From contig NC_086097.1 of assembly GCF_963921235.1 (NCBI RefSeq), positions 55,926,001-55,990,000 of the forward strand: 64,000 nucleotides of DNA, in the 5' to 3' direction. The position numbers were made by a program, and so were the translations under genes. Origin of the DNA: Mobula hypostoma. Its lineage: Eukaryota. Shown piece after piece: positions 4,746 to 64,000 of this stretch. The notes beneath the pieces were generated by a model that saw nothing but the letters and a program-made list of their open reading frames with translations, ran no database searches and was not told the DNA's origin. Positions within the stretch are counted from its first letter, which is position 1; each line of letters starts with the position of its first letter.

Positions 4746-4800
4746 TTGGGATGGAGATCAAGCAACAATCCCCAAGATTGCTATTTCATTTATTTTTTTG

Positions 4801-5072
4801 CTGAACTGAGGCTGAGGCTGTGGGCCTGCTCTGGCTGCCCGGGCTCGGTGATGTTTTACTCCACTACGTGCTGAACTGAGGCTGAGGCTGAGGCTGTGGG
4901 CCTGCTCTGGCTGTCCGGGCTCGGTGACGTTTTACTCCACCATGTGCTGAACTGAGGCTGAGGCTGAGGTTGTGAGCCTGCTCTGGCTGCCCCGGGCTCG
5001 GTGATGTTTTACTCCACTACGTGCTGAACTGAGGCTGAGGCTGTGGGCCTGCTCTGGCTGCTCCAGGCTTCG
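4801..5072 (+). repeat. GC-rich minisatellite, about 3.6 units of 70-77 bp
   Basis: Units start at 4801, 4871, 4947 and 5024 (CTGAACTGAGGCTGAGGCTGTGGGCCTGCTCTGGCTG...). Lengths differ mainly by the number of internal GAGGCT hexamers. Confidence 0.95.
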
Positions 5073-6027: not shown

Positions 6028-6475
6028 TTGGATTTCCAGCATCTGCAGATTTTCTCTTGTTTGTGATTGGATTGCTACACTGCAAAGTCTCTTTAGGGAT
6101 GCCTACCCTGAAGAAGTTTAAATCTTCCCTTCAACAGAATTTCAGTGAAACCCTCTCTCACTGCTCCCCCTCTGATCTCTGCTGCTCTCCGAATCTTTGA
6201 CCCACTACCACAGCGATGATCTCTTTCACCAATCAACTTAAGCTTTTTACTTCACCCCTCCCCCCTCCTGGTTTCACCTTTACCTTGTGTTCTTCCTCCC
6301 CTCCTCCACCTTCTTACTCTGACTCCTCATCTCTTTTCTCCAGTCCTGAGGAAGGGTCTCGGCCCAACGTATCAACTGTACTCTTCTCCATAGATGCTGC
6401 CTGGCCTGATGAGTTTCTCCAGCATTTTGTGTGTGTTGCTTAGATTACCAGCTTCTGCAGATTTTCTCTTGTTTG
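6028..6475 (+). mobile_element. Penelope-like element remnant with directly repeated terminal segment
   Basis: GATTTCCAGCATCTGCAGATTTTCTCTTGTTTG near 6031 recurs as GATTACCAGCTTCTGCAGATTTTCTCTTGTTTG near 6443. The remnant also has a pyrimidine-rich body and a hammerhead-like motif at 6341-6378. Confidence 0.75.
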
Positions 6476-6834
6476 GAATTTTAGTCAGAAGGAACGGTTT
6501 AGTTGGTGGTGAGAAAAGTTAGCAAAGGATAGAATTTCCTCTGATGACTAGGTTTTAGTCTAATTTTGGAGAAGGTAGCAAAGTTGCAGATCATATGGAG
6601 GAAGAGGGAATCATTACTGGCAGTTTCTGGGTTGCAGAGTTTAACTGTGCATGTGCACATTACAGAAGTTTCTGGAAGCACCATGATACAATAATGAATA
6701 TTAAGAGCTTCACTATCATGCCAACCACACCATCCAAGCCAATATCCTTGAGCCACCTGAAACACTGCTGACTATTGGTGCAAATTACAGAAAAGGAATC
6801 GAGTACAATTTGAGTTATAAACATTACAAGCCAA

Positions 6835-7012
6835 CAACATAACTGTGGAGGCCAATTGACTGGATATATTTAAAATGGAGTTTAATATGTTCTTGACTGG
6901 TAAGGATGTCAAGAGTTCCAGGGAGAAGGCAGGAGAATGGGGTTGAGAGGATTCATGGCAGAGTAGACTTGATGGACCAAATTCTGCCCCAATGCAATAT
7001 GGTCTTACGTTC
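6835..7012 (+). mobile_element. CR1 LINE 3' fragment
   Basis: GTGGAGGCCAA...GGATATATTTAAAATGGAG...GGGAGAAGGCAGGAGAATGGGG...ATGGTCTTA is the same tail family as 62793-62956. Confidence 0.8.
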
Positions 7013-7486
7013 TGACATAATGCATAGACAGGCTTTTGAATGAGAGTAACAAAATAAATCAAATATAATCAGATATCCAGGTAAAAGCTTCTAGTTTAAG
7101 AGGACAGGTAAAGTGTAGGCTCAATGTAGACAGTGATATTCCATGCTGTCATCTTTCATCATCAGAGAAACCGGTAATATTTAACGTTGATGGGTTTCAA
7201 AATAGTTGACGATGGTATGTTGTTTGCAGCAAAGGTTTAAACTAAGAATATTGTAGACAATATTGCAATGCTTCCAATCATAATACCATTCGTCACTTAG
7301 GCTGAGGCATGATCATTGAAGTGCTTTCTAGATGGTCTTCTAGGCTAGAAAAAGACTAATGACAGATTGATTAAGTCAGCGTGAATCAATATCTTAGTAA
7401 ATGTAGCAGCTGCATTCTCTAAGCTAACATGTACCACATTCATGCTTGTGGAGACAGGTAGACAGAGCATTGACACAGATAAAATC

Positions 7487-8791
7487 TTTCTTTTTTCTTT
7501 TTCAATCTTTTTATTAGTTTCATAAAATATAAACATAACATAGCAATAATACAAAATTGTTGGAAATACATTGTTATACTTAAAATGAGTAATTATAAAA
7601 CCAAATAGTATGAATTGAGAAAATTCCCAATCATGTAGGATAACAATGAATAATACAGGACAAAAAAAAACTGGAGAAAAATCATGAAAAAGAAAAAAAA
7701 ATAGATAAAAAACAAACCCCACCCCAAAAAAAACTAAACTAAACAGAATTAGTCAACTAAACTAAAAGACTTGAGCAATTCTAACAACGTAAAAATGGAA
7801 GAGAAGAAAACCTTAGTGTCGACGACTCCATTCCTCTCAACCAACAGTACAGAGAAGTAAAATAAGTTTGGAAATGGTCAAATTACATCATATGAAAATG
7901 CTGAACAAATGGCCTCCAAGTTTTTTCAAATTTAATGGAGGGTCATAAACCACACTTCTACTTTTTTCCAAATTCAAACACAACATAGTTTGTGAAAATC
8001 AGTGAAATACAGTAGGAGGGTTAATCTCTTTCCAATTGATCAAAATGGAACTTTCCTTTTTCAACCTTCCACTATGGATCAAGCTTACTTTGTTTGGAAA
8101 ACCAAAGGTATAGTACGTTTTTGTAATTTATTTTTGGATAATTGTTTCATGTCTTTTGATCAACTTTCTAATAAATATAATTTACCCAGATCTCACTTTT
8201 TTAGATACCTACAGATTAGAAACTTTTTAATTACTGCTTCTCCTAATTTTCCACACCCATATCCAATGGATACTTTGGAAAAAATTTTAGATCTAAATCT
8301 CTTCAGAAAAGTGTTGTAGCAATTATTTATAACATAATTATGAACTTATGTCCTGATGTTTCCAATAAAATTAAAACTGATTGGGAAAGAGAACTTAAGA
8401 TTATTATACCAATTGAAAAATGGGAAAAAATTCTTCAATTGGTTAATTCATCCTCTATATGTGCTAAACATGTGTTGATACAATTTAAAGTAGTGCACAG
8501 GGCTCATATATCTAAAGATAAACTATCTCATTATTATTCTTATATTAATCCTATATGTGATAGATGTCATTCCAAGATAGCTTCTTTAACTCACATGTTT
8601 TGGTCATGTTCTTTGTTGGAAAAATATTGGAAAGATATTTTTGATATTATTTCAATGGTTTTGAATACAGACTTACAACCTGACCCAATTACTGCTATTT
8701 TTGGATTACCAATGATAGACTCAAATCATTCAACCTCTTCAGCACGCCGGATGATTGCATTTCTTACTTTAATGGCTAGAAGATCCATTTT
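7487..8791 (-). mobile_element. 5'-truncated, 5'-inverted L1-clade LINE
   Basis: 7487-8049 on the minus strand holds the ORF2 C-terminus (SILINWKEINPPTVFH), a 3'UTR, AATAAA (7510-7515) and an A-rich tail. 8050-8791 is upstream ORF2 on the plus strand with the zinc knuckle CDRC...HMFWSC. TSD ACAGATAAAATC lies at 7475-7486 and 8792-8803. Confidence 0.93.
8050..8791 (+). pseudogene. Inverted L1 ORF2 segment, post-RT region with zf-RVT-like motif, frameshifted
   Basis: ORFs 8002-8319 and 8340-8834 give FLFQPS...WKTKGI...HFFRYLQIRNF...LIQFKVVHRAH...CDRC...HMFWSC...MARRSI, typical of fish L1/Tx1-like ORF2. Confidence 0.88.
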
Positions 8792-8979
8792 ACAGATAAA
8801 ATCAACAATAAGTTTCATTATAGAACCTAACTAGGTATCAACCCATCACAGTTCATGAGCTGTGCTGGAGATCTGGAAAAGTCACCAAGCTGACTACGAC
8901 TGTAGACATGGCTGTTCTCCACGTTGATCCGCCAGGAGATAGCGAATAACATGTGGTAGTCATGCCAACAGGGGGCAGA

Positions 8980-9480
8980 AGTAAAGGTGTGCCAGGAGGA
9001 AGGATAAGCAGAGGAAGCTGAAATGAAATAAATTGTGAGAACATGAAGTACAAGACTGGAATGACTGATTATCTGAAATGCTGAATTTGGTGTTGAATCC
9101 TGAAGGCTGTAAGGTGCAAGTCAGATGTTCTGCTGTTCTTGCAGCTTCGTTGAAACAGCATAGGAGGTCGTTGTGCAAATGGGATGGAGAATTAAGTATC
9201 AAGATCAAAGTGGTGAACTGAACAGTATGTTCTGCAAAGCGGTCACAAGTTCATATTTTGGTTGCCCAAAGCAGAGGAGAGCACATCATGATCATCAGAA
9301 GCAGAAAGCCATATTGGAAGAGTTGAATGAAATACCTTCTTCATTTGGAATTAATATTTAGGTCCCTGGGTAATGGGAGGGAAGGAATTAAATGATAGTT
9401 ATCGCATCTCTTGCAGTTGGCGTGGAGGGCGCCACAAGTAGGGTGGTGAATTAGTGGAGATGGAAAAGTCAACCCGAATA
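8980..9480 (-). mobile_element. Old Penelope-like fragment, GIY-YIG region
   Basis: Colinear by eye with the better preserved copy at 57770-58170. The minus strand reads HLTCTLQPSGFNTKFS, resembling the Penelope C-terminal LGxLQPxGxNxxFS. Confidence 0.6.
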
Positions 9481-10817: not shown

Positions 10818-11055
10818 AGAGCTGTCCAGCTCTTGGCTCCATCCCTCCCCCTCCTGTCTTCTCCTATCATTTTGGATCTCCCCCTCCCCCTCCCACTTTC
10901 AAATCTCTTCTTTCAGTTAGGCCTGACAAAGAGTCTCAACCTGAAATGTCGACCGTACCTCTTCCGAAAGATGCTGCCTGGCCTGCTGCGTTCACCAGTA
11001 ACTTTGATGTGTGTTGCTTGAATTTCCAGCATCTGCAGATTTCCTCGTGTTTGCG
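10818..11055 (+). mobile_element. Penelope-like 3' terminal repeat
   Basis: A pyrimidine-rich body followed by CTGACAAAGAGTCTCAACCTGAAATGTCGAC...GATGCTGCCTGGCCTGCTG...TTTCCAGCATCTGCAGA. Confidence 0.8.
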
Positions 11056-24712: not shown

Positions 24713-24997
24713 CTAAATGTATCTCAGATAAAATACAATGGGGTAGAAATCCTTTCATACAAAGATATACTGTGTGGGCTTTCTGCCCCAGTTCATTATA
24801 CGGCATGAATTTGCCATATTCACCAGTGATGTTCAAAAGAATATCAATGGAGCAAGAGTTGTTGACTTGAAATGTGAACTGGCATTTCTTTCCTGGGATC
24901 TGCTAGATTTCCAGTATTTTCTGGTTTTGTGCTCAATAGAATTGACAAATCCTCACGCACAAATCTACATGGGACAGTCTTCATAAACACGAAAAGT

Positions 24998-25118
24998 TCT
25001 GCACATGCTGAGAATCCAAAGCAACACACACAAAATGCTGGAGGAACTCAGTAGATCAGGCAGCATCAATGAAAATGAATAAGTCAATGTTTCAGGCCGG
25101 CAGCCTTTTTCAGGGCTT
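24998..25118 (-). mobile_element. Penelope-like terminal repeat with degenerate hammerhead
   Basis: GCAACACACACAAAATGCTGGAGGAACTCAG...CAGGCAGCATC. The minus strand of 25081-25118 is AAGCC-CTGAAAA-AGGCTGCCGGCCT-GAAA-CATT-GACTT. Confidence 0.85.
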
Positions 25119-29679: not shown

Positions 29680-32561
29680 CTGTGGATTCTGGTTAATTGG
29701 GAAACGTCGAAACCAATACATTTTGGCCCAATTAAGCGGCTACACCAATTGGCTGAAGTTTCATGGAAGTAGTTACAAAGGTATAAAAAAGACAAACTAC
29801 CATTTAACTGAGTAACAAATTATGAATTTAAATGAAATACAAAACAAATTAGAACACTACCAATACTATTATAGTACTATAAAACTGTGTATTAGTTCCT
29901 AAAATTTATTGATGGAGGAATTCACCCATTGTATGCAGCCCTGTTCTTTTGATTGATTGTAAGTGAACAAAATCAGTGCAGATAATGGACTGCCTTTATA
30001 CAATGCTTTCAAAATCAGGATCAGAATTAAGTTTAATATCACCGGCATATGTTGTGAAACTTGTTGTTTTGCGGCAGCAGTATATTGCAATACATAATGA
30101 TAAAGCTATAATTAACAATAAGAAGTACATACTGTATACTTCTACATATTTTGTTAAATATATATATAATTAATTTAAATATGTAGTGCAAAAAGAAAGA
30201 TAAAAAAATACTGAGGTAGTGTTGATGTGTCATTGTCCATTCAGAAATCTGATGGTGGAGAGGAAGATGTTGTTCCTTAAACCCCGAGTGTGTGTCTTCA
30301 GGCTCCTGTACCTCCTCCTTCATGGAAGCAACGAGAAGGGGGCATGTTCTGTATGATGAGGGTCATTAATGATAGATGGCATCACGTTTTGAAGGTGTCC
30401 TGGATGCAGGGGAGGCTGGTGCCCATGACGACGCTGGCTGAGTTTACTGCTTTCTGCAACTTTTTCTGACCCTGTGCAGTGGCCCCTCCACACCAAATGA
30501 TGATACAACAAATTAGAATGCTGGACATCCATAGAAATTTGTGGGTGTCATTGGAGACATACCAATTTCCCTCAAACTCCTAATAAAATTTAGCTGCCTT
30601 TGTGCCTTCTTTGTAATTGCATCAAGATGTTGGGCCCAGGATAGATCCTCAGAGAAGTTGGCACCCAGGAACTTGAAACTGCTCACCCGTTCAACTTCAG
30701 ATCCCCCAATGAGGACTGGTGTCTGTCTCTCAACTTCCCCTCCCTGAAGTCCACAATCAATTCCTTGGTCTTACTGACATTGAGTGCAAGGTTGTTGCTA
30801 TGGCACCACTCAACCAACTGATCTATCTTGCTCCTATACTGTATGCCTCCTCATCACCATCTGAACAATACTTGTGTTGTCAGCAAATTTATAGATGGTG
30901 TTTGAGCTGTGCCTAAATGCACAGTGGTGAGTGTAGGGAGAGTACAGCATTGGGCATCCTTGAGGTGTGCCACTGTTATTGTTAGCAGGAAGGAGATGCT
31001 ATTTCCAATCTGTACAGACTATGGTCTCCTGGTCAGGAAGTCTAGGATCTAGTTGAAGAGGCAGGTACAGAGACACAGTTTTAGGAGCTTGTTGATCTGA
31101 AGGTATGCTGGTGTTGAACTCTAAGCTGTAATCAATAACCAGCAGGCTGATGTAGGTATTACTATTGCCCAGGTGATCCAAGGCCAAGTGGAGAGCCAGT
31201 GAGATTGCACCCCCTGTAGACCTATTGTGGCGATAGGCAAATTGCAGTGGATCCAGGTCCTTGTTTAGGCCAAAGTTGATATTAGACATGAACAACCTCT
31301 CAAAGCACTTCATCGTAGTAGATGTCAATGCCACTGGACAATAGTCATTGAGGCAGCTCACCCTGCACTGATATGCTTGTCGCCCTTTTGGAGCAGGTGG
31401 GAACTTCCGACTCCAACGGTGAGAGATTGAAGATGACTTTGAACATTTCCACCAATTGGTGGCATGGGTTTTCAGAATCCTACCAGGTACACAATCAAGG
31501 CCTGACGCCTTGCGAGGATTTACTCTCTTGAAAGATGTTCTGATGTCAGCCTCCGAGACTGAAATCACAGAGTCACCAGATGCCGCAGGGATTTGCACAG
31601 GTGTAGTTTTATTCTCCCTTTATAAATGTGCATGAAAGGTGTTGATCACACCTGGGAGTGAAGCATCACAGCCATTCATCATCTTAGCTTTGGCTTTGTA
31701 GGAAGTAATGGCCTGTAAACGGACAGGCATCCGATTCCATCTCTAACCTCAATCAGAGTTTTTTTTTCACCTTTAAAATAACCTTTTATTGGTCATACCT
31801 GGACTTCTTGTATAGTTACGGATCACTGGTGTTGAATGCCACATATCTAACCCTCAGCAGATTACAAATCTCCTGGTTCATCCATGGCTTTTGGTTTGTG
31901 TATGCTCTCAAAGACACATACTCATGTACACAGGTCTTGATGAAGTTGGTAATTCATTCAGACTCGAAGATGGATCTCTGAATATTGTCCAGTTCACTGG
32001 ATCAAAGCAGTCCTAGAAGCACTCCTCCGCTTCCCTTGACTATACCTTCTTAGTCCTCACCATTGGTGCTGCAGTCTTTAATTTCTGCCTATATGCTGGG
32101 AGTATTGCATTGCATGCCATTGCATCCTCCAAATATTCATTTTCATTGTATCATTCAAGATGATTGATGATACCTTTAAATTCCTCTTGGTTCCTTACAC
32201 GTTCTGGCCATTTCTGGCATCTTCAATCCTAAATGCTTCAAACCCCAGTGAGTAAAACAGTTCTGAATTGTCTTACTACTTATTTCTCAACAACTATCAG
32301 TGACAAAAATCATTGCTTTTTGAACACACACACACACAATTGATGCTATTTAAAAAGTATTTGCTCTAGGTACAGCATGGCCACAAAAATGCATACAACT
32401 AATGCTAGTTAGAAACTGTTCGACAAGTCTCCTGTCCCAATTCTCCCTAATAAACAAAGGGAATCCCAGCTATTTTCTCAATTAGGTTTCACTTTTTAAG
32501 AGTTGTTCCAAATAAGCAGCTGCCCCAATTAATCAATGGCCCTATTAACTGGAATTCACTG
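29680..32561 (-). mobile_element. pogo/Tigger-like non-autonomous element interrupted by a Rex1 LINE
   Basis: TA-flanked termini CTGTGGATTCTGGTTAATTGGG and CCCTATTAACTGGAATTCACTG are imperfect inverted repeats. The minus strand near 32235-32315 reads AMIFVTDSC*EISSKTIQNCFTHWG, resembling the Tigger TIxNCFxxxG motif. Confidence 0.78.
30013..32104 (-). mobile_element. Rex1/Babar-clade LINE, 5'-truncated, decayed RT
   Basis: ORF 30999-31598 reads VNPRKASGLDCVPGRILK...CLNDYCPVALTSTTMKCFERL...LDPLQFAYRHNRST. The 3' tail AATCAGGATCAGAATT lies at 30013. Confidence 0.92.
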
Positions 32562-33052: not shown

Positions 33053-33540
33053 TGACACTTCAAATGTAAATTTCTAACATTATCATTCTTTGCATGTTTC
33101 AAATCAGACCACAATTTTTTGATGAAGGCATGCTGTGCATTTCTGATATCTTAGGAAGTATATGGATTTTTATTTAGGATATATAAATATACACATTTGT
33201 ATATAGAAATATGCTGTATCTATCTTCCCAGCAGTCTACAAATATTTAATCTGAAAATTATCTTGTTGGAAGATATTCTTTATTTGTACAATTGTATTCC
33301 TTAATGTAGCTGACCAATTGTTTAGGACATATTAAGGAAAGATTCTCAGAGGATTACATCAATGGTCATCAACACAGATTAATATCAAAAACAGTAGGAA
33401 TGTTCTTCAATGATAAAATATATGAAAAAATCTTTATAATCTTTCCCAATTCCCATTTTTCTCATAAAATTGTTAATTCACATCAAGGGGCAGCTAGGGA
33501 TGTATTCCTGCCCAACGAAGTCAGCAGGGTTAAACTTCCC

Positions 33541-33675
33541 GGCCCGATGAAGGGTCTTGGCCTGAAATATCGATTCTTCATTCCTTTCAACAGATGCTGC
33601 CTGACCTGCTGAGTTCCTCCAGCATTTTGCATGTGTCACTCTGGTTTCCAGCTTCTGCAGAATCTTTTGTGTTTA
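33541..33675 (+). mobile_element. Penelope-like terminal repeat with near-intact hammerhead core
   Basis: CCGATGA-AGGGTCTTGGCCT-GAAA-TATC-GATT followed by AGATGCTGCCTGACCTGCTGAGTTCCTCCAGCATTTTG. Confidence 0.85.
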
Positions 33676-34179
33676 TTCCCGCCCAAGGTGCAGTTCCTCA
33701 TGTAAGAGTATAGAGAGCCTGATCTAATTTAACTATCCAAAATTGACAGGAAAACCTGTCATGGCACTCATTCTGGATCTATACACTTCCAGCCTCATTA
33801 TTATTGATAGTGGACTGCTTCCCCTTTCACAGTACCTAGTGCTGAACCACTAGGTTTTATCTGATATTATTTATGTGTTTTCAGCTGCATTGTTTTACTT
33901 AATTTAGATTTTAAAACATTATTAATGCAGTTAAATATTACATATCTTTGAGAGTGCTGGAAACCCCCACCCTGCTCACTAGAATTTATTTTTTTGCAAC
34001 ATACAAGAAACTATATCAGCATCGATGTGTTATTGTCACCTGAGTTTTTATAGAAAGGTCATCTCTGCTAATCCCCAGGCCTGCCTGAATATGGGAAGGG
34101 TTTAAATCCAGTATGCTTGATCTGGGATCCCTCATAGTTCCCTCACTGAGCTATACAATTTAATTGAGACTCAGAGTGC

Positions 34180-34470
34180 CTTTGACCTCTTCATTTTCTT
34201 AACATGGCCAGGCTGTTACTCAGTCCTCCAGTCTGTCCTAGCAAGCATTGGCAGGCGCTTGAACCACAATGGGCGCCAAAGCCAAATCCAAGCCATTTCC
34301 AGCCAATACCCACATGTCTGTATTTTCTAACAGGAGTTTGTGGATAGCAACCAAGTGCAGAAATTTTGGCCAATTTTAATCTATCTAAACTCAGAATATC
34401 AATGCCAATTTTAGCACCCTGGCTAAGATACCCAACTCAATTCAAACTGCTGGTTAGGTTTGGCTCCTCC
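34180..34470 (-). mobile_element. Possible ancient chondrichthyan tRNA SINE relic
   Basis: GCCAAAGCCAAATCC...GGATAGCAACCAAG...GCCAATTTTAGCACCCTGGCTAAGATACCCAACTCA resembles, from memory, the reverse complement of an old shark SINE. A possible plus-strand relative lies at 58400-58560. Confidence 0.4.
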
Positions 34471-37229
34471 GTCTTCAATGGCCTGTTCACTCCAAAGCAT
34501 TTTAAATGTTCCTGGAACTTTTGATGTTGAGACAATTTCTTACATAGTGCAAAAACATTTTGTAAATGAACAAGGCAGGAGTTTCCAGCACACTCAAAGC
34601 TATATTATATTTAACTACAATAATTATGTTTTAATCCAGATTAGGAAAAATATTGCAGCTGTAAACACTTATGATCTTGTCAGAAGCATTGCTTATTACC
34701 AGCTGTTGGATGCAGTCATAAAGTACCAGCTTTACAGTTATGAAAAAATGTGGATATTGTAATAATTATTAAACCAGTGTGGATTGCTATCTCGGTGTCC
34801 GTCTTTCTAAATGGTAATGTGGTATCAGCAGCTGCAGACGACCGTTGATTTCCCTATTAGTAAACAAGTGCTTTGGAGACCTGTGTGAGACACTTTAAGC
34901 CCACTACTCCCCGAAGTGCTGTCAAGCTTAACTACTAATCCATGGTATTTTAGAGCACTGGAAATTCATCTTTATAAAACCCTAACAAAAAAGGAAGAAG
35001 CCTGGAGGGCATGAGCTCCCTCTGGTGAGACAAATGACATGTTCATTTATTAATGAAACAATAACCCTGGAAGGAGGATCAAAGCATGTCCCGTCCTCAC
35101 TTTACAACCTCCAATTTTCTAAGGCCAAACTATTTAATTGAACCACGACAATGAAATATTTAATTGTTACCATTAAATAAAATTTCAGGTAAGGTACGGG
35201 GAACAAGAAATGTGTCTAATGCAAATGAACAGGATGTTAGTGACTATTTCACAAACAGCATGTGACCAAAGGACAAAACTGTTTTAATTATGGCAATGAA
35301 TGCATAATTGTTGTGTTTATTAGGAAAATCTCATAAGGCAGTAGTTTTGATTTTTCTGTTCTATTTACAGCATCTTAATTACTTTTTGATTACTTTGCAT
35401 ATAAAAGCATGTTGCAAATTGGCACAGACTCTGTTTTAAATATTTAGCAATGAGTTATTTGTTGTACTGCTCTGTGTTATCAAAATGTACGATACTGTAT
35501 GTGTTGAGGCACATTATCATTTATGCATATTGGCTGGCTTATGTACCATGAAGTCAGATCTGACTAACACACTTGACAACATCGCAGGCAAAACTGACTT
35601 GCAGGCCCTAATATGTTGACAGAATGAAATAGTGATTAGTGTATTTTATGATTCATTAATTTGTTTTTTTGCATATTGACTTTCTTCCAATTTGCTCCAG
35701 AAGCTACCTACTTTAAAGAAATATCTTTAAATAAATAGATAACTATCAGAATCATTGTGCAGATTGGCTGTATAGACAGATTGATTAATCACTAAGGGCT
35801 GAAATATTCATTAATTACAACACCTTATGCAAATCCTAATGGAGATATTGCCATGTCTTTTTAAAGTTGCCTGAGAAATTCCATGCTACATGAAATAACT
35901 AGAAACCAAAAACAACTCATTTTATAACCAGCTAAACTTCCATTTAAGTAATTAAAATAATGCCCCATGCAATGTTAGAGTGATTGGAACTTCCCTCTTG
36001 GGAAATGGTGTGATATAATATTTAATCTTTTGTCACTGTATAGACTCCCTTTGCATCAATTGCAGTATAATTCACATTGCCCGGCCTTTTATTTTACCAT
36101 TGGAGTTGATTGGACAGTGTGTAGCATTTTAAATCCTGGGTGGTTTGCTGGGTATAATAGCAATCTCTATGAATATGATTCAGTTTAGTGTAGGTGCCTT
36201 TTGTCTGCATTAATCTGCAAAGGTATCTTTCTAGAATTCTGTAAATGCATTTTATCAATGCATGTCACATTTTCCATTCTTTCATCTCAAACATTTAATT
36301 TAGCATCCAGTCATGCTGGTAATCCTATGTCATGACACTCTCTATTCACCTCTGATTCAGTGCTGACAACAGCTTCTTATAAAGATAAAAATAGGTGAAG
36401 GGTATTATAAAGAAAGAAGGATCCAGCTATGCTGTGAGACCTCAACTCCTGGCAACATCTTTGGTCCCTCAGGTTTCTTTATACTAATTCAGCAAATTAT
36501 TAAGTTAAATAATAAGTCAACTGACAATATTATGATTTAAAGTTTGTATCAACTGGGACCCTGCCTTATTGTTTCTAATCTATAATTCCTCACACTGCAG
36601 GGGGAGTTTTAACTCCTGAGCGGAACATTTATGTCGACACTGCTGGCCTAGGTGTAGCACCGGCAGGCATTGGAAACAGAAAAGCAGATGCAGTTCTGGC
36701 CACTGAGGGAATCAGGTGGCAGCCAGTCAGGCTGGCATTGGAGGGATCTGAAGGATGGGCTGGGAGGCTGTAGTTACTTCCTCTTCACCCTCATTGGAAA
36801 ACCACTGGCACCTCGACTTCTGGTGATTGAAACAATGGACACATATTGAGTGCACTACTGAAGCATAAATTGAAGGGACAGGTCCGTGACAGGTGCTGGA
36901 ACCCCAGTTTACAAAAAAAGCTGCAGGTTTTCTCAGAAATTGAACAATTATGAAGACAATGTGACAATTATGATATGGTTGCATTTCCACTGGATTTTCC
37001 AGTTAATATTACAATTTTTAAATTTTTATTTGGTGCTTAGTTTTATTTAAGTAGCACTGAAATAGGAAATTAGTGATGATCTTATTGATTGGCCCACCAG
37101 TCACAAAGATCACAATGGCTTATTTCTGCTTCTATTACCTGTTGATAATGATTACATCTGTCTTCTGATGGCAGGACAAGATATCTAGATTTCTTTAACT
37201 TTTTTATTTTACACTACGTACCATTCAGA

Positions 37230-39869: not shown

Positions 39870-40660
39870 TCACATCTTTAATCTTTGCTAATCACCCCCC
39901 ACTAATGGATTTTATATTTTTCTATTTACCATGGGCAGCCTCTGTCTCATGGTATTGAAGCCTGCCTTATCCAAACCTAAATGCTGAATACTGCGCCAAG
40001 TTGTTCTCTTTCAAAAGATCCAGGTAATCACCATGAGGTAACTTCAGGTAATGTTGGCTTGTTAACAACATCTAAGTCTAACATGGTCTCTTTCTTGTAA
40101 AGTCTCCACTTTGTAGCAGGGATCGCTGGCATATGTTGCTTATTGCCTTTCAATATAATATGGTTGCTGTTCTTCATTATCAACCCTGATATTTGTTATA
40201 CAATGTCCAGTAAACCTCTCACACTATAATTAAATTATTCTGGCTTTATGGCATCCTAATGTACTCATTAATTGCAATGTGATATGCTAACAAAGGGATT
40301 TCTCATATACTATACAAATATAGGAGAAACTAGACAAATATGCATAAAGGAAGAATGATTTAAATTTAGCTTTTTATCTTTCAAATAAACCTATTACTTC
40401 ATCTGAAAGGTAGTGAATTTCTTGGCTAGTGAAGTATCTGAAAACCATGAAAGAAAGATCATGTTAGACAGATGTTGTTAACAAGCCAACATTTCATGAA
40501 GTTATCTCGTGATGATTATCTGGATCTTCTGAAAGAGAACAATTTGATGCAGTATTCAAGCTCTTCGATATGGATAAGGCAGGTTTCACTATCTAAGATG
40601 GAGCCTGTCTGTGGTGAACAGACCAATGGGACATAACTAGCAAAGAATACAAATGTGGTA
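39870..40660. repeat. Long imperfect inverted duplication, arms about 39870-40095 and 40451-40660
   Basis: TGTTGGCTTGTTAACAACATCT pairs with AGATGTTGTTAACAAGCCAACA, CCTGCCTTATCCA with TGGATAAGGCAGG, and TTGTTCTCTTTCA with TGAAAGAGAACAA. Confidence 0.92.
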
Positions 40661-42810
40661 CAGAACTAATTTTAAGAAATAAGGACTTTACTTGCCAAAA
40701 AACATGGATGCATGGATGACAGGAAAATAATAAGTGATAAAATAAAAGGGTTCATACAGAAGTACACAATATAGCACCCTGGTGACTGGGAGAGGTTCAA
40801 AAACCAAATGGATAGAAAACAAATAACAAGTGATATAAGACGGCAAAGAGGTTTTCAAGAGATAACAAAATCAATGCAATATTTCTTAAAGGTGATCAGC
40901 AGCAATTTGGGGCCCTTCACAACTGATAAATTGTTAAAAAAATGATACAGTAGTCATATTGAATCATTATTTCCAGAAAAGAAAGGGGATAGACATCAAT
41001 GGGGGCTAGTGTTGAATCGAGACTGAAGAAAATGATGGCAATAAGATTGAAAAATGTTGAGAGTTAGCTTTTCCATTCAGGATTTTAAAGGACGTAGGTG
41101 AGAACTCTGCAAAAGCTGGACAAAAAAAAACAATCCACCAATATTCTCTACACTTGGAAGAGAGAGCTGGCAAGGAAAAGTAGGTCATCTCTGTAAAACT
41201 TGATTGCATTTTACAAAGAGGTTATCTGTAATAATGGATGTGGACACAAAATATCACGTTTGGAGGCAAAGTGCCAAATATTGACACAGCTAAATTGTGT
41301 ATTTATTTTCATATCTGAGGATCAATTTCTCGGCGTTAGCTAAAGTTGAACCCCTGAAAATGAAACCAACCAAATGACTGATTTAGAAGACTGCCCGAGA
41401 GGTAAGAAATAAAAGATTAGGGATGATGGGTAGATACTCAAAGACCCAAATTGCACAACATGATTGAAAACTAAACAAGTTCAGACCTTTTCTTCTTCAT
41501 TCTAGAACTTGAGTCTCTGAGGCACTTGTCACTATTAGAAGTCTTGCAATGTACCAGTGGACAGCAAGCTCATTCTCCAAGGATAGCTTCCCACAAATAT
41601 AATGTCCAGAAGGTCAAGAGATAGTGTGGATCGATTCCTTAATAGCTTATTCCCTTGACCTCTGAATGACCAACTTTACCAGGTCCATGAGCTGGGATGT
41701 CCTTGGTCCTGGACTCAAAACTTTTCATGATCGATGAGCAACACAAAGAACAGGGTCCATTCTGAATGAAAAAGACAAGTTTAATTTTTTGATGAAGGGT
41801 CTCAGCCTCAAATGTCAACTGTTTACTGTTTTCCATAGATGCTGCCTGGCCTGCTGAGTTCCTCCAGTATTTCATGTGTATTGCTTGGATTTCCAGCATC
41901 TGCAGATTTTCTCTTGTTTATTTTTCTATTGTCTTGTGCAATCAATATTTTTAAATTAGCAAAAATATGATTTTACTTTCTTTATCAATGACCTGGAATA
42001 AGGAATACAAAGTCACATATCCAAGTTTATCGACGAAAAGGAAATAGGGAACATTGTGAACTGTGAGATATTACTAGATTACAGTGAATACATTTGTAAA
42101 AAGGATTTCAGTGCCATCACTGGGACATCATCCTTCATGGACATAAACAGGGACAAGCAGGATATTACCCCATTGCAAAAAGCCAGAAATGGGGGGAGGT
42201 TTAAAGACATTTTGTCCATGAGCGCAGATCATTAATTTGTCATAATTGTTATGAAACTAATCAAAAAGACCATTGAAAAGCTAGCCCTTGTATCTATAGT
42301 TTAGCAAGGATGCAAAGATGGAGGTGAAAGAGGTAAAGATTCATGTTATTGCTGCACAAACCCTTGGTTATACCTGGACTACTGTAAGTAGTTCTAGGCA
42401 TCATATCATAGCTTGTCTATATTGCCCCTACAAGAAATCCCAATTAAAGGTACTCAAATAAAGCTTGGTCTCCAAGGATCATGAGTGAAATTATACAAAT
42501 TTGGGTTATATATTCCCTGCTTTTTAAGAGCTTGATGGATAATTTTGTTCAAGGGGATCTGACAGAGTTAAATATAGAGAACATATTTCCATTGGTTGAT
42601 GCCTTTGAAGTCAGTGTTTGAAACTCTTTTCTGTAAATGACAAGTTACACCAAGTTAATTTTATACCAGAACTGAAAACTTTTCATTACCCAAATGTATT
42701 AAGAGATGTGAGATAAAAGTAGGCAATGGAATTAGGTCACAGATTTGCTATGAATTCATTGAATGGTGGACTAGAGTCAAAAGGCTAGGCAGATTATTCT
42801 TCTCTTTCTC
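40400..42810 (+). mobile_element. Very old, fragmented CR1 ORF2 relic
   Basis: Patchy matches: TGACCTGGAATAAGGAATACAAAGTCACATATCCAAGTTT (the DL...SKF region of RT), CCCTTGGTTATACCTGGACTACTG, and the tail GAATGGTGGACTAGAGTCAAAAGGCT. Confidence 0.5.
41789..41920 (+). mobile_element. Penelope-like terminal repeat with degenerate hammerhead
   Basis: TTGATGA-AGGGTCTCAGCCT-CAAA-TGTC-AACTG...ATAGATGCTGCCTGGCCTGCTGAGTTCCTCCAG...GGATTTCCAGCATCTGCAGATTTTCTCTTGTTT. Confidence 0.87.
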
Positions 42811-50899: not shown

Positions 50900-52645
50900 A
50901 AAGTTCAAAGTAGACTAATTATCAAAGTAGATAGTACATGTCACCATGTACAACCCAGAGATTCATTTCCTTGTGGGCATACTCAATAAATGCATAACAG
51001 AATAACGATCATAGTAGATTCAATGAAAGACTGCACTAACATGCGTGTTCTGCCAGTGTGCAGAAGACAACAAATTGCACAACTATAACAAGAAAGAAAG
51101 AATAATAAATAAATAAGCAACAAATATCAAGAACCTGAGATGAAGAGTTCTTGAAAGAAAGTCAATCGGTTGTGAGAACATTTCAATGATGGGGTAAATG
51201 AAGTTGAGTGAAGTTATCCCCTTTGGTTCAAGAGCCTGATGGTTGACGGGTATTAACTGTTGTTGAACCTGGCGGTGTGAGTCCTGAGGCTTGAGTACCT
51301 TCTTCCTGATAGCAGCAGCAAGAAGAGAGCATATGCTGAGTGGTGGGGATCCCTAATGATGGATGCTGCATTCCTGTGATAGCGTTTAATGTAGATGTGC
51401 TCAATGGTGGGGAGGGCTTTACCCATGATGGACTAGACCGTATCCACTACTTCGCAGGATTTTCCATTCAAGAGCATTGGTGTTTCTATACCAGGCTGTG
51501 ATGCAGCCAGTCAATATACTCTCCACTATACAGCTATAGATGTTTGTCAAAGTTTGAGAACTCTTGCCGAATCTTCCTAATTTCCTTAGGAAGCAGAGGC
51601 GCTGTTGTGCTTTCTTCAAAATTGCCCAGGACTGGTCCTCTGAAATAATAACACCGAGGAATTTAAAGTTGTTGACCATCTCCACTTCTGATCCTCTGAT
51701 CCTCCACCAAGGACTGGCTTATGGACCTCCAGTTTCCTCCTCCTAAAGTCAATAATCAGGTCCTTGGTCTTGCTGACATGGAGTAGAAAGGATGCTGTTA
51801 TAGCACCACTCAGCAGATTTTCAGTCTTCCTCCTATATGCTGATTCATCACCACCTTTGACTCAGCCAGTGTTGTGTGCAAACTTGAATATGGCATTGGA
51901 GCTGTGCTTATCCACACAATCACAAGTGTAAAGCGAGTAGAGCAGAGGACTAAGCACATAGCCTTGTGGTGCACCTGTGCTGATGGAGATCATGGAGGAG
52001 ATGTTGTTGCCAATCCAAACTGTCTAGGATCTGCAGGTGAAGAAATCACGTAGCCAATTGCACAAGGAGGTTTTGAAGCCAATGGTCTAGCAGCTTATTG
52101 ATTAGTTTTGAGGAGATGACGGTATTAGAAACCGAGCTGTACTCGATGAAGAGTATTTTGATGTACAGTATGCATCTTTGCTGACCAGTTGTTCCAGGGT
52201 TGAGTGAGGAGCCAATGAGATGACATCTGCTGTGGACCTGTTCCTCCAGTAAGCAAATTGGAGTGGCTCCAAGTCGCTTCTCAAGCAGGAGTTGATATGT
52301 TTCATCACCAACCTCTCAAAGCACTTCACACTGTAGATCTAAGTGCTTCTTGACAATAGCATTTGAGGCAGGTCACCATGCATAGTTGAAGCCTGCTTGA
52401 AGCAGATGGGTACCTCAGGCTGCTAAAGCAAGAGGTTAAAAATTTCAGTGAACTCTCCAGCCAGTTGATCAGCACAGGTCTTTAGTACCTGGCCAGGTAG
52501 CTTGTCTGGGCAGTATACCTTTCGTGGGTTCACCACATGAAGTCTGCTTGCATGTTGACCTCAGAGTCTGAAATCATAGAATCATCGGGGTTGTGGGAGT
52601 TCGTGATGGTTCCTCCATGTTTTGATGGTCAAAGCGAGCACAGAA
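50900..52645 (-). mobile_element. Rex1/Babar-clade LINE, 5'-truncated
   Basis: MKCFERLVMKHINSCLRSDLEPLQFAYWRNRSTADVI (52102-52329) and VNNFKFLGVIISED...KKAQQRLCFLRKL...IVESILTGCITAWY (51419-51685). Confidence 0.93.
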
Positions 52646-59076: not shown

Positions 59077-59089
59077 AGTTCCATTTAAT

Positions 59090-59214
59090 AGAAAATCTGC
59101 AGATGCTGCAAGTCCAGAGCCACACACACAAAATGCTGGAGGAACTCAGGAGGTCAGGCAGCATCTGTGGAAAAGCGTACACAGTTGACGTTTCGGGCCA
59201 CGGCCCTTCAGCAG
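59090..59214 (-). mobile_element. Penelope-like terminal repeat with the best preserved hammerhead core
   Basis: Minus strand CTGCTGA-AGGGCCGTGGCCC-GAAA-CGTC-AACTG, then AGATGCTGCCTGACCTCCTGAGTTCCTCCAGCATTTTGTGTGTG. Confidence 0.88.
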
Positions 59215-60814: not shown

Positions 60815-60985
60815 TTCACTCCTTTACACCTCCATGCCACACCAGGATGTCCTTTGGAACTTTTGCTTCTTCCTTGAACAGAGGCCTGGATAGGATCATC
60901 ACTATTTTGTTTATCTAGTTGAACTCATTCTTCTATTGAACAACTGCTTTATTTCCATTTACTTTCTCTGTGAATACATGGCTCC
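60815..60985 (+). mobile_element. Second Penelope RT fragment, opposite orientation
   Basis: CTTTACACCTCCATGCCACACCAGGAT reads LYTSMPHQD, and CTAGTTGAACTCATTCTTCTATTGAACAAC reads LVELILLLNN. Confidence 0.65.
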
Positions 60986-60994
60986 TCCGTAGAG

Positions 60995-61600
60995 AGGGTT
61001 AAGTGTACCAAGTTCCTGGGAGTTCACATCATGGATGACCTCACCTGGTCCCCTTGATATCAGCTCCCTGAACAAGAAAGCAGAGCAGTGTCTCCACTTC
61101 CTAAGGAGTTTGAGGAAAGCGAGGCTTCCTTACCACCCGCTGCCCCATCCTTAACTGCATTTTACAGGAGCACCATCGAGAGCATCCTGACAAGTTGCAT
61201 CTCCATCTGTAATGGGAGCAGCCGAGCGTCGGACCGGAAGGCAGTCCCTAAGAAAGACTGTGAAGAATGGTTGAGAGGATCATAGGACTTACCATCCATC
61301 AGGGATATTTATCAGGAGCATTGTGTATGCAGGGTGCTTAGTGTTATTAAGGATCCCACCCACTCATCCAGCATCCTCTTTGACTTTCTATCATCAGGCA
61401 GGTGACTCCAATGCATGAAAACAAGATCAGTCACAATGAGAAACAGTTCTTCCCTCAGGCCATTAGGTTTCTGAACTCCCTACCTCATCACATTCAAAGT
61501 GTCATTGATTAATCTGTTCCGTACTTTACTCTATTTGATTTATGCACTATAGTTTCTTTATTTATGTGTAATCCATCAGTAGATTTCATCCTTACATTCA
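60995..61600 (+). mobile_element. Rex1/Babar-type LINE 3' end
   Basis: KFLGVHIMDDLTWS (ACCAAGTTCCTGGGAGTTCACATCATGGATGACCTCACCTGG) and LTAFYRSTIESILTSCISI. Confidence 0.88.
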
Positions 61601-61639: not shown

Positions 61640-64000
61640 ACTGTGTCAGGGGTACTTAGCGTGGTTTAAGTGGCTATTGTGTGTTCTTCATGCCAAATGT
61701 TGGAGTCCTGGGAGACCCAGAGTCTCCCAGGGAACTATATCTGTGTGAAGTGCATCCAGCTGCAGCTCTTTGAAGACCGTGTTAGGGATCTGGAGTAGCA
61801 GCTGGATGGCCTTTGGTTTCTACAGGTAGGTGACGAGATCATCGATCGGAGTTACAGGGAAGTAGTCAGCCCTGAGTTCCAGGAGGCAGGTAGCTGGGTG
61901 ACTGTCAGGAGAAGAAATGGCAGGTGAATAGGCAGTTCATGCAGAACACTCCTGTGGCCATTCCTTCATTAAGAAGTATGCCTCTTTGGATATTGTCGTG
62001 GAGGATGAATGGGGAATGCCGCAGAAACCAGACTACCGACACTGAGCATAGGTCTGTGGTGCAGAAGAGAAAGAGGGAGAGGAGGGGAGGGGCAGTAATA
62101 GGGACTCAATTGTCAGAGGAATTGACAGGAAATTCTGTGGACGTGAACGGGACACCCGGATGGTATGTTGCCTCCCAGGTGCCAAGGTTGAGGATGTCTC
62201 GGATCGCGTCCACAGCATTTTGAAGGGGGAGAGAGACCAACCGGATGTCTTAGTACATATTGGTACCAATGGCACAGGAAGGAAAAGGAGAGACGTCCTG
62301 AAGAGAGAACTTACAGAGCTAGGTAGAAAGCTGAGAAGCAAGATCTCCAAGGTAGTAATTTCTGGATTCCTACCTGTGCCACATGTCAGTGAGGGTAGAA
62401 ACAGGATAATTTGGCAGATAAATGCACAGCTGAGGAGCTGGTACAGGGGGCAGGGCTTCAGGTTCTTGGATCATTGGGATCTCTTCTGGGGGAGGTATGA
62501 CCTGTACAAAAGGAATGGGTTGCACCTGAACCTGAGGGGGACCAATATTTTCACGAACAGGTTTGTTGGAGCTGTTGGGAAGGGTTTAAACTAATTTGGC
62601 AGTGGGGTGGGAACCGGAGAGAAGAGATTCAGGATAGGACAATGATATAAAAGCAAAGATAGCGTGCAGCCAGACTGTCAGGAAGGGCAGGGAGATGATA
62701 GGACAAAATTACAGCCAGCAGGGTAAATATCAGTGCATTAATGATACAAAATCAAAAAGGGCAGCAAATACAGTTCTCAAGGTGTTATATCTTGAGATTG
62801 ACAGGTATCTGAGTAGCCAGGGCATCAAAGGTTATGGTGAGAAGGCAGGGGAGTGGGACTAAATGGGAGAATGAATCAGCTCATGATAAAATGGTGGTGC
62901 AGACTCGATGGGCCGAATGAACGACTTCTGCTCCTTTGTCTTATGGTCTTATGGTCTTATATCTCAATGCACGGAGTATAAGAAATAAGATGGAGGATTT
63001 TGTTGAATTTTTACAGAATGTCAGGAATAATGTTGTGCCCATCACTGAATCACTGAATCATGACTGAAGGATGGCTTTGTTTGGGAGCTGAATGTCCAAG
63101 GTTATACATTGTATCAGAGGCATAGGAAGGTAGGCAGAGGGGTTGGAGTGGCTCTGCTGATAAAAAATGCCATAGGATCGGAAGATGTTGAATACTTGTG
63201 GGTTGAGTTAAGAAACTGTAAGGGTAAAAGGACCATAATGGCAGTTATATACAGGCCTCCAAAAGGTAGCTGGGGTGTGGACTACAGATTACAATGGGAA
63301 ATAGAAAAAGTGTGTCAAAAGGGCAATGTTACGATAGTCATGGGAGATTGGGAAAATTAGGTTGGTAATGGATCTCAAGAGAGTGAATTTGATGAATGCC
63401 TATGAGATGGCTTTTTAAAGAAGTTTGTCATTGAGCCTACTAGGGGATCAGCTATACTGTACTGGACTGGGTGTTTTGTAATGAACTGGAGGCAATTAGG
63501 GAGCTTAAGGAAAAGGAACCGTTAGGAGGCAGTGATCACAATACGATTGAGTTCAACTTGAAATTTGATAGGGAGAAAGTAAAGTTTGACAAAGCAGTGT
63601 GGAGACGAGTTGAGAGAGGAGTTGGCCAAAGTGAATTGGAAGGAGATGCTGTCCGGGATGACAGAAGAGCAACAATGACTTGAGTTTCTGGAAAAGTGAG
63701 GAAGGTGTATTCCAAAAACAAAGAAATACTCAAATGGCAAAATAGTACAACAATGACTGACAAGGAAAGTCAAAGCTAATGTAAAAGCAAAAGAGAGAGC
63801 ATACAATAAAGCAAAAATTTGCAAGATGGTAGAGGATTGGGATGCTTTTAAAAACCTACAGAAAACAACTAAAAGAATTATTAGTAGGGAATAGATGGAA
63901 AAATGAAAGCAAGCTAGCAAACAATATCAAGGTGGACAGAAAAAACTTTTTCATGTATATGAAAAATAAAAGAGAGTTGAAAGTGGATATAGGACTGCTG
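61640..64000 (+). mobile_element. CR1 LINE 5' half (ORF1 and ORF2 endonuclease), running off the window
   Basis: ORF1 has a zinc finger/leucine zipper (VCSSCQM...YICVKCIQLQLFEDRVRDLE) and an SGNH esterase (CCLPGAKVEDV...VHIGTNG...GLHLN). ORF2 has APE motifs LKVLYLNARSIRNK, GVGVALLIK, VIYRPP, VMGD and GGSDHN. Multiple stops and frameshifts. Confidence 0.93.
62793..62956 (+). mobile_element. Short CR1 3' tail inserted into the ORF2 start of the older CR1
   Basis: Ends in (TCTTATGG)n and is flanked by TTATATCT at 62785-62792 and 62957-62964. Removing it restores the frame LKVLYLNARSIRNK. Confidence 0.9.

Follow-up and report, generated by a model that had tools for sequence, protein, structure and literature searches.

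A natural 5'-inverted L1 insertion of twin-priming layout in the ray Mobula hypostoma

The 5' inversion of L1 has hitherto been treated as largely a trait of human-type L1 in mammalian cells, and its mechanism is described as still poorly studied (PMC12016303). For 5'-inverted L1 copies of the human germline the median sizes are 751 bp for the inverted part, 571 bp for the non-inverted part and 13 bp for the target-site duplication, and an overlap between the two parts is present in 44 of 106 inversions with a median of 12 bp and quartiles of 4-17 (PMC12016303). Human and chimpanzee 5'-inverted L1 without primer microhomology account for only 28 of 605 (PMC2912911). Outside the mammals, one engineered 5' inversion of the zebrafish element Nimb-2_DR has been described in chicken DT40 cells; the other inversions in that study were only for human L1 in human cells and none for human L1 in DT40, and its authors argue that 5' inversion depends on both the element and the host (PMC4245944).

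No report of a natural 5'-inverted L1 in fish was found among the literature matches listed, where coverage is thin for subscription journals. Fish inversions may already have been described in zebrafish L1 papers (Ichiyanagi and Okada 2006, 2008; Ichiyanagi et al. 2007) or by Ostertag and Kazazian (2001). The accessible text of PMC5389967, PMC13174262, PMC6007223, PMC4476161 and PMC2718515 holds no non-mammalian case, and nothing relevant was found in the literature on Zorro3. We report that a locus in Mobula hypostoma is a genuine 5'-inverted L1 insertion in a non-mammalian vertebrate, i.e. one copy of a known structural class in a lineage for which no report was found in the literature searched, and that the inversion probably arose by twin priming, in which the two cut ends of a single target each serve to start a cDNA on one L1 RNA.

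Layout of the insertion and identity of the element

The locus was studied in a window of 64 kb, by which we mean the whole stretch of DNA that was analysed. The parts of the insertion are as follows (P0001 and P0002 are ray L1-derived proteins; X1 and X8 are sequencing runs with read-derived contigs).

7475-7486, no strand: target-site duplication, copy adjoining the element's 3' end (primer side of the first nick); exact 12-mer, in X1 and X8 contigs
7487-7515, minus strand: A-rich GAAA-type tail (7487-7509) and AATAAA (7510-7515), from the sequence
7516-7882, minus strand: 3' UTR with long T tracts, from the sequence; 7677-7703 is complementary to the tail
7883-8049, minus strand: last ~55 codons of L1 ORF2, non-inverted segment; match to P0002
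8042-8053, minus strand: overlap, a stretch present in both segments; identical over 8 nt (8042-8049), 11/12 when taken to 8053
8050-8051, no strand: two bases, AC, of uncertain origin; compared by eye with a loose-end family consensus
8052-8068, plus strand: inner end of the flipped piece and its best tail-complementary site; 15/17 with 7493-7509
8052-8791, plus strand: inverted segment, C-terminal region of L1 ORF2 with a zinc-knuckle (zf-RVT) motif; PF13966, P0001/P0002
8784-8791, plus strand: end of the flipped piece on its outer side, where the overlap appears a second time, ending TTTT; X1 contig 8
8792-8803, no strand: target-site duplication, copy at the 5' end of the element (second-nick side); sequence and contigs

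The 64-kb window has two exact copies of ACAGATAAAATC and no more, one at 7475-7486 and one at 8792-8803, and the repeat is not extendable on either side. Among 2995 random pairs of sites with the same spacing and 10 bases of slack per end none reaches a 12-nt repeat, the longest being 11 nt (3 pairs), in keeping with an earlier sequence-only reading that had placed one insertion inside a perfect 12-bp duplication. This one duplication encloses both segments. Read along the minus strand it is followed by 742 nt of antisense ORF2 (8791-8050) and a sense part of 563 nt that comprises the end of ORF2, the T-rich 3' UTR, AATAAA and the GAAA-type tail, after which the duplication returns. The 3' segment is thus non-inverted, with its polyadenylation signal and A-rich tail abutting the duplication (a junction found in both X1 and X8 contigs), while the upstream element sequence is opposite in orientation and its 3'-most base abuts the other copy of the duplication; in the RNA the two breakpoints lie close together, with a small overlap and with joints in native register in family contigs. 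The same reading had the 3' part on the minus strand at 7487-8049 and the upstream part flipped, a layout that we retain, except that the flipped piece can be traced with certainty to 8052 and not to 8050.

The copy, of ~1.3 kb, is dead, and function is not likely for a single dead L1 copy. In its non-inverted ORF2 segment (7883-8049) the reading frame shifts once, near 7938, and is interrupted by one premature stop, and family contigs have one extra base at 7938 and another letter at 7999; the inverted segment has a frameshift near 8302, where family contigs again have an extra base. No other copy of this L1 family was found elsewhere in the 64-kb window.

The zf-RVT match of the flipped piece to PF13966 has an E value of 1.8e-4, which is under the curated cut-off. 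At the protein level this piece is best matched, at 77% and 76%, by annotated Hypanus sabinus products that derive from L1, its identity to P0001/P0002 is 64-75% by block, and the minus part matches P0002 at 31/36 and 15/18 residues. Judged by protein identity (64-86% by block), the copy is not of the same subfamily as P0001/P0002. A full-length relative, P0005, is 50% identical over the flipped piece, carries both PF03372 (APE endonuclease) and PF00078 (RT), and has human L1 ORF2p as its top match among solved structures (E 1e-183). The copy itself has a T-tract 3' UTR with AATAAA and an A-rich end, and zebrafish L1 elements have T-rich 3' UTRs terminating in AATAAA (PMC5381506). On these features (APE, RT, a zinc-knuckle ORF2 and L1 ORF2p as the nearest protein) the clade is probably L1 of the fish type; the copy itself lacks the RT domain, and Tx1 is a formal alternative.

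Whether the segments come from one lineage was assessed at protein sites that separate two ray lineages among four ray proteins. Diagnostic residues flanking the break favour the same lineage on both sides, by 5:1 in the last 39 codons of the plus part and by 5:0 in the first 36 codons of the minus part, with 1 and 2 sites, respectively, fitting neither lineage; over the whole flipped piece the diagnostic sites are more mixed (12:5 and 19:10). At the protein level both segments are therefore assigned to the same ray L1 lineage, and the condition under which the sequence-only reading would have been withdrawn, segments from different subfamilies, was looked for at this level only and not found.

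Of three Hypanus sabinus products (P0001-P0003), METTL21A isoform X1 and the BBS5 homolog isoform X1 resemble C-terminal fragments of L1 ORF2, and a fam185a isoform terminates in such a fragment. These are probably annotation artefacts or exonised L1. Of 48 pattern matches obtained when DNA of the family was sought via protein in metagenome contigs none was confirmed, and a family DNA pattern had 0 matches in each of the metagenome, viral and prokaryote contigs.

No host gene was identified in the window, where one of 30 further open frames matches Pfam, an RTE-type piece. Three decayed and mutually related RTE-type LINE fragments are present (30039-31619 and 51083-52533, minus strand; 60974-61204, plus strand), and within each of them the matched pieces all lie on one strand. 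The open frame at 62052-62594 has an SGNH/GDSL esterase domain (PF13472, E 1.5e-9), which we take to be of the kind known from ORF1 of CR1-type LINEs. There are also two pairs of long inverted arms, 39921-40622 and 33872-34671 (180 nt at 81% and 153 nt at 76%), candidates for old non-autonomous DNA transposons, a tandem array with a unit of ~70-76 nt at 4799-5069, and an interspersed repeat of ~130 nt, SINE- or LINE-tail-like, with six copies of 75-85% identity.

6339-6478, 10919-11053, 24983-25098, 33537-33677, 41790-41922 and 59079-59213, both orientations: copies of the ~130-nt repeat, from the sequence

Read-derived contigs from four organisms

Contigs from four of 16 listed runs, one run per organism (A-D), were compared with the window; one of these runs, X1, possibly comes from the sample that was assembled. 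Its contig 1 covers 7000-7514 and thereby the left junction with the tail on the minus strand, and contig 8 covers 8762-9300 and thereby the right junction with ORF2 on the plus strand, each with 0 differences. These opposite strands at left and right require an inversion between the outer junctions. In run X8 (organism B), contig 17 extends over 7107-7514 and into the tail, showing 12 differences along 408 nt, and because it shares the left junction the insertion is older than the divergence of organisms A and B. For B the contigs give the insertion at this junction and leave the right junction and 8848-8924 uncovered, and organisms C and D are without cover of the flanks; no empty site came to light in these runs. 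In the right flank X8 has 16 additional bases at 9019 relative to the window. Among the displayed contigs of the four runs none crosses the inner junction (8049/8052) or spans the whole stretch.

Family contigs in X8 and X10 link both parts natively, with joints at 8043/8789 and 8053/8779 on opposite strands. Copy-specific changes, defined as positions where nearly all family depth differs from this copy, number 7 in the 563-nt part and 11 in the 742-nt part among the 40 of 240 differences displayed, and their load is alike in density between the 3' piece and the flipped piece.

One X1 contig of single-copy depth (15.4) passes from antisense 3' UTR to sense ORF2 at 7703/8052 with 19 letters between, which by eye are a continuation of the 3' UTR and the five family letters preceding 8052. 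It may represent a further inverted copy or an antisense insertion nested at that site. Same-strand minus-to-plus joints were found at four places (7703/8052, 7891/8210, 7862/8356 and 7939/8077), with sides of 21-26 nt where displayed; they may reflect other inverted copies, nested insertions or chance and, with sides this short or not displayed, are left uncounted.

Junctions and the route to the inversion

The first nick reads AAAATC/AACAAT on the plus strand, where, set against a TTTT/AA-like L1 endonuclease site, the pyrimidine/AA step is present and a T run is absent; its TC end could pair with the GA of the GAAA-type tail. At the second priming site (8791/8792) there is 0 nt of microhomology and 1/12 matches in register. 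The sequence-only reading was right on both the TT/GATT target and the absence of primer microhomology, and the target is less odd than it suggested given the C/AA nick and a tail that is GAAA-type and not pure poly(A). Shifted primer pairing (6/9 after three skipped bases) was rejected, being equalled at 102 of 1281 sites and requiring an unpaired 3' end. On first-strand cDNA the outer end reads TTGATC/AAAATG and has ATC/AA in common with the target nick. Within 1305 nt there are 4 instances of this pentamer and 21 of Y/AAAA, the C/AAAA step was noticed after the fact, and the family consensus from read-derived contigs differs at two bases of this context, leaving C/AAAA.

At the inner side, the plus part ends ...MARRSI and the minus part starts SILINWKEINPP. 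With P0002 as reference, tblastn places residues 251-419 on the plus strand and 412-471 on the minus strand, consecutive on the ray L1-derived proteins, and this together with the native-register joints in X8 and X10 family contigs bears out the proposal that the two parts are contiguous in ORF2. The overlap between segments is 8 nt exact, as had been noted; the reverse complement of 8042-8053 is identical to 8780-8791 at 11 of 12 positions, so that the overlap may be longer, 10-12 nt, giving a full range of 8-12 nt. Because family contigs (loose ends) read TCTAA immediately before 8052, the AC at 8050-8051 fits neither strand fully and would be one substitution on either reading, or non-templated. 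The inner junction lies between 8049 and 8054, with a microhomology of 0 or 2 nt (TT, 8052-8053) depending on the placement of one mismatch. Just upstream of 8052 the family letters match the top strand of the target at 8 of 12 positions (by eye, loose-end consensus), a level that 17 of 1281 sites attain.

At its inner end (8052-8068) the flipped piece agrees with the beginning of the first-strand cDNA (7493-7509) at 15 of 17 positions. Of the 726 start positions in this piece no other does so, and none pairs more stably with the tail RNA (-11 kcal/mol). In dinucleotide shuffles a 15/17 tail site appears anywhere in 10/300 and within the first five starts in 0/300, and in the window 21 of 127,968 17-mers attain this level, the tail itself included; the match was found post hoc. 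A TTTTTC/AA step lies within the site at 8062/8063, 11-13 nt from the seam. In the 3' UTR, 7677-7703 is complementary to the tail at 16/17 (-16.4 kcal/mol), better than 8052-8068, and is no breakpoint in this copy. This block is conserved among otherwise variable 3' UTRs in the contigs examined, and together with 7487-7512 it forms a predicted stem closing the last 200 nt of the RNA. The 3' UTR fold (tail with 7685-7701) is overall unremarkable (z -1.27, 13/100 shuffles as good).

From the layout of the product, which is what is observed, we infer the following course of twin priming. The endonuclease would nick the plus strand at AAAATC/AACAAT and the TC-3' end would prime on the GAAA-type tail, after which the other strand would be nicked 12 nt away and its 3' end would start a second cDNA inside ORF2. 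This start would be at the edge of a UUUU run and lack a templated match, and would involve mismatch-tolerant priming or added A residues that pair with the U run. The first cDNA would extend 563 nt, 8-12 nt beyond the start of the second, and the second, of ~740 nt, would stop where it is complementary to the start of the first, being captured there or with the enzyme re-entering at that site as a tail mimic. Joining of both cDNA ends with 0-2 nt of microhomology would complete the insertion. Twin priming is favoured by the single exact 12-bp duplication, by breakpoints that are adjacent in the RNA with native-register family contigs in agreement, by diagnostic residues of the same lineage on both sides of the break, by contigs with 0 differences and opposite orientation at both outer junctions, by the similar load of copy-specific changes in both parts, and by sizes (742/563/8-12/12) near the human germline medians.

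The sequence-only reading had twin priming operating in this lineage. The 5'-inverted structure is true, and the strict mechanism is likely but short of shown, since the primer-RNA match on which the model relies is absent; with no microhomology for an annealed second primer, the copy is classed as working like twin priming and not as its proven product. That different priming rules apply, as was also proposed, is not derivable from one copy. The absent match could be covered by three properties of human ORF2p, namely tolerance of terminal mismatches, non-templated addition of bases and template jumping (PMC10830420); A residues added in this way would base-pair with the breakpoint's UUUU and go unnoticed in the product. 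Counting against twin priming are the zero primer microhomology, rare among the primate cases, the tail match at the inner end and the C/AAAA at the outer end, which the plain model does not predict, the evidence from one copy, and the failure of human L1 to yield inversions in chicken DT40 cells.

A possible, if unlikely, alternative is that one cDNA ran to ~8052 and folded back, its A-rich 17-nt stretch pairing with its own T-rich start. An internal nick at 8041/8042 would follow, the 5' end of the stem-held distal piece would be bluntly joined to the other target end, and the nicked 3' end would be extended by 8-12 nt and join the inner end. Such a course accounts jointly for the zero microhomology, the nick-like TTGATC/AAAATG and the 15/17 tail match, and self-annealing ends at L1-made breaks with one homologous seam have been described (bioRxiv 10.1101/2024.12.14.628481), but it was devised after seeing the data, several of its steps are unshown for any L1, the cases in that preprint mostly invert flanking genomic DNA, and endonuclease motifs were sought at human inversion breakpoints without success (PMC12016303). 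Added A residues under twin priming explain the breakpoint's U run just as well. A simple snap-back is excluded, since merely 8-12 nt are duplicated while 740 nt of upstream element sequence is flipped. That inversion in this family is set by tail complementarity and an endonuclease-like or U-run start instead of a short primer match, with some or all of it being single-cDNA fold-back, is a tentative idea that we regard as doubtful. If tail guidance is true, inverted copies of this ray L1 family should share recurrent breakpoints (the putative X1 joint at 7703/8052, ~5 nt from the same site and with a shorter side of 26 nt, is a hint of this kind), and fold-back, nick and end-joining would be a second route to 5'-inverted LINEs.

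It is improbable that an ordinary 5'-truncated insertion had its front part inverted later via a staggered break. Staggered breaks likewise leave short inverted duplications, and the 8/12 match of family letters upstream of 8052 to the target is what an annealed truncation junction might give, but one breakpoint would have to hit the boundary between element and target within 2 nt and leave the duplication intact, and the last two bases of the target mismatch the family so that standard microhomology is only 0-1 nt. Twin priming on two RNAs, with the flipped piece from a sister subfamily that reads ACA after the breakpoint, is very improbable: ACA would supply a normal 3-nt primer match, contigs of the sister subfamily fit through 8794 in 4/4 runs (17, 9, 4 and 2 contigs), and the lineage of the plus part is less pure over its full length, but there would be no reason for the first cDNA to stop <=12 nt from the start of the second and other contigs hold both sides of the break in native register. 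We give scarcely any credence to a pair of L1 insertions, independent or nested, that point in opposite directions. The inner end is at the spacing of a target duplication from the TTTTTC/AA step, which resembles insertion into an L1, but the parts are contiguous in the RNA and the tail is flanked by unique DNA and the outer duplication, not by host ORF2 with a duplication of its own. Least probable of all is an assembly artefact, for which the lack of a displayed contig across the inner junction and the possible identity of X1 with the assembly's sample could be cited; separately built contigs agree with 0 differences each at the outer junctions, on opposite strands, and the left junction is also found in a second organism.

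Comparison with known systems

A natural copy in a ray, shared between organisms and of near-human dimensions, suggests that the pathway is old in jawed vertebrates or easily reached. With its non-poly(A) tail and readable seams this ray L1 family makes the mechanism testable, and microhomology and breakpoint clustering across its inverted copies would separate twin priming from fold-back repair.

As in fish-type L1 (PMC5381506) and P0001/P0002, the copy has a zinc-knuckle ORF2 C-terminus, a T-tract 3' UTR, AATAAA and an A-rich end, but unlike these it is merely 1.3 kb and dead. With L1 break-end remodelling (bioRxiv 10.1101/2024.12.14.628481) and R2 snap-back (PMC11371274), as far as their accessible text goes, it has in common a self-annealed strand and one homologous seam with the other blunt; those cases mostly invert flanking DNA or recopy copied sequence, whereas the ray copy flips 740 nt of upstream element. 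Like Nimb-2_DR, whose duplications peak near 12 bp in the accessible text (PMC4245944), it is a non-mammalian LINE with a 5' inversion, but Nimb-2_DR was engineered, in cell culture and of the Nimb clade, and the ray copy is a natural L1 common to two organisms. The closest likeness in layout is to human and primate 5'-inverted L1: a single duplication in the 10-20 bp range, a sense 3' part with tail and an upstream part in antisense, breakpoints that are neighbours in the RNA, a short overlap and sizes nearly equal to the medians. The ray copy differs from them in its GAAA-type tail, its C/AA nick and the zero primer microhomology, and, compared with human 5'-inverted L1 as described in the accessible text, in having its inner end on a site complementary to the tail of the element.
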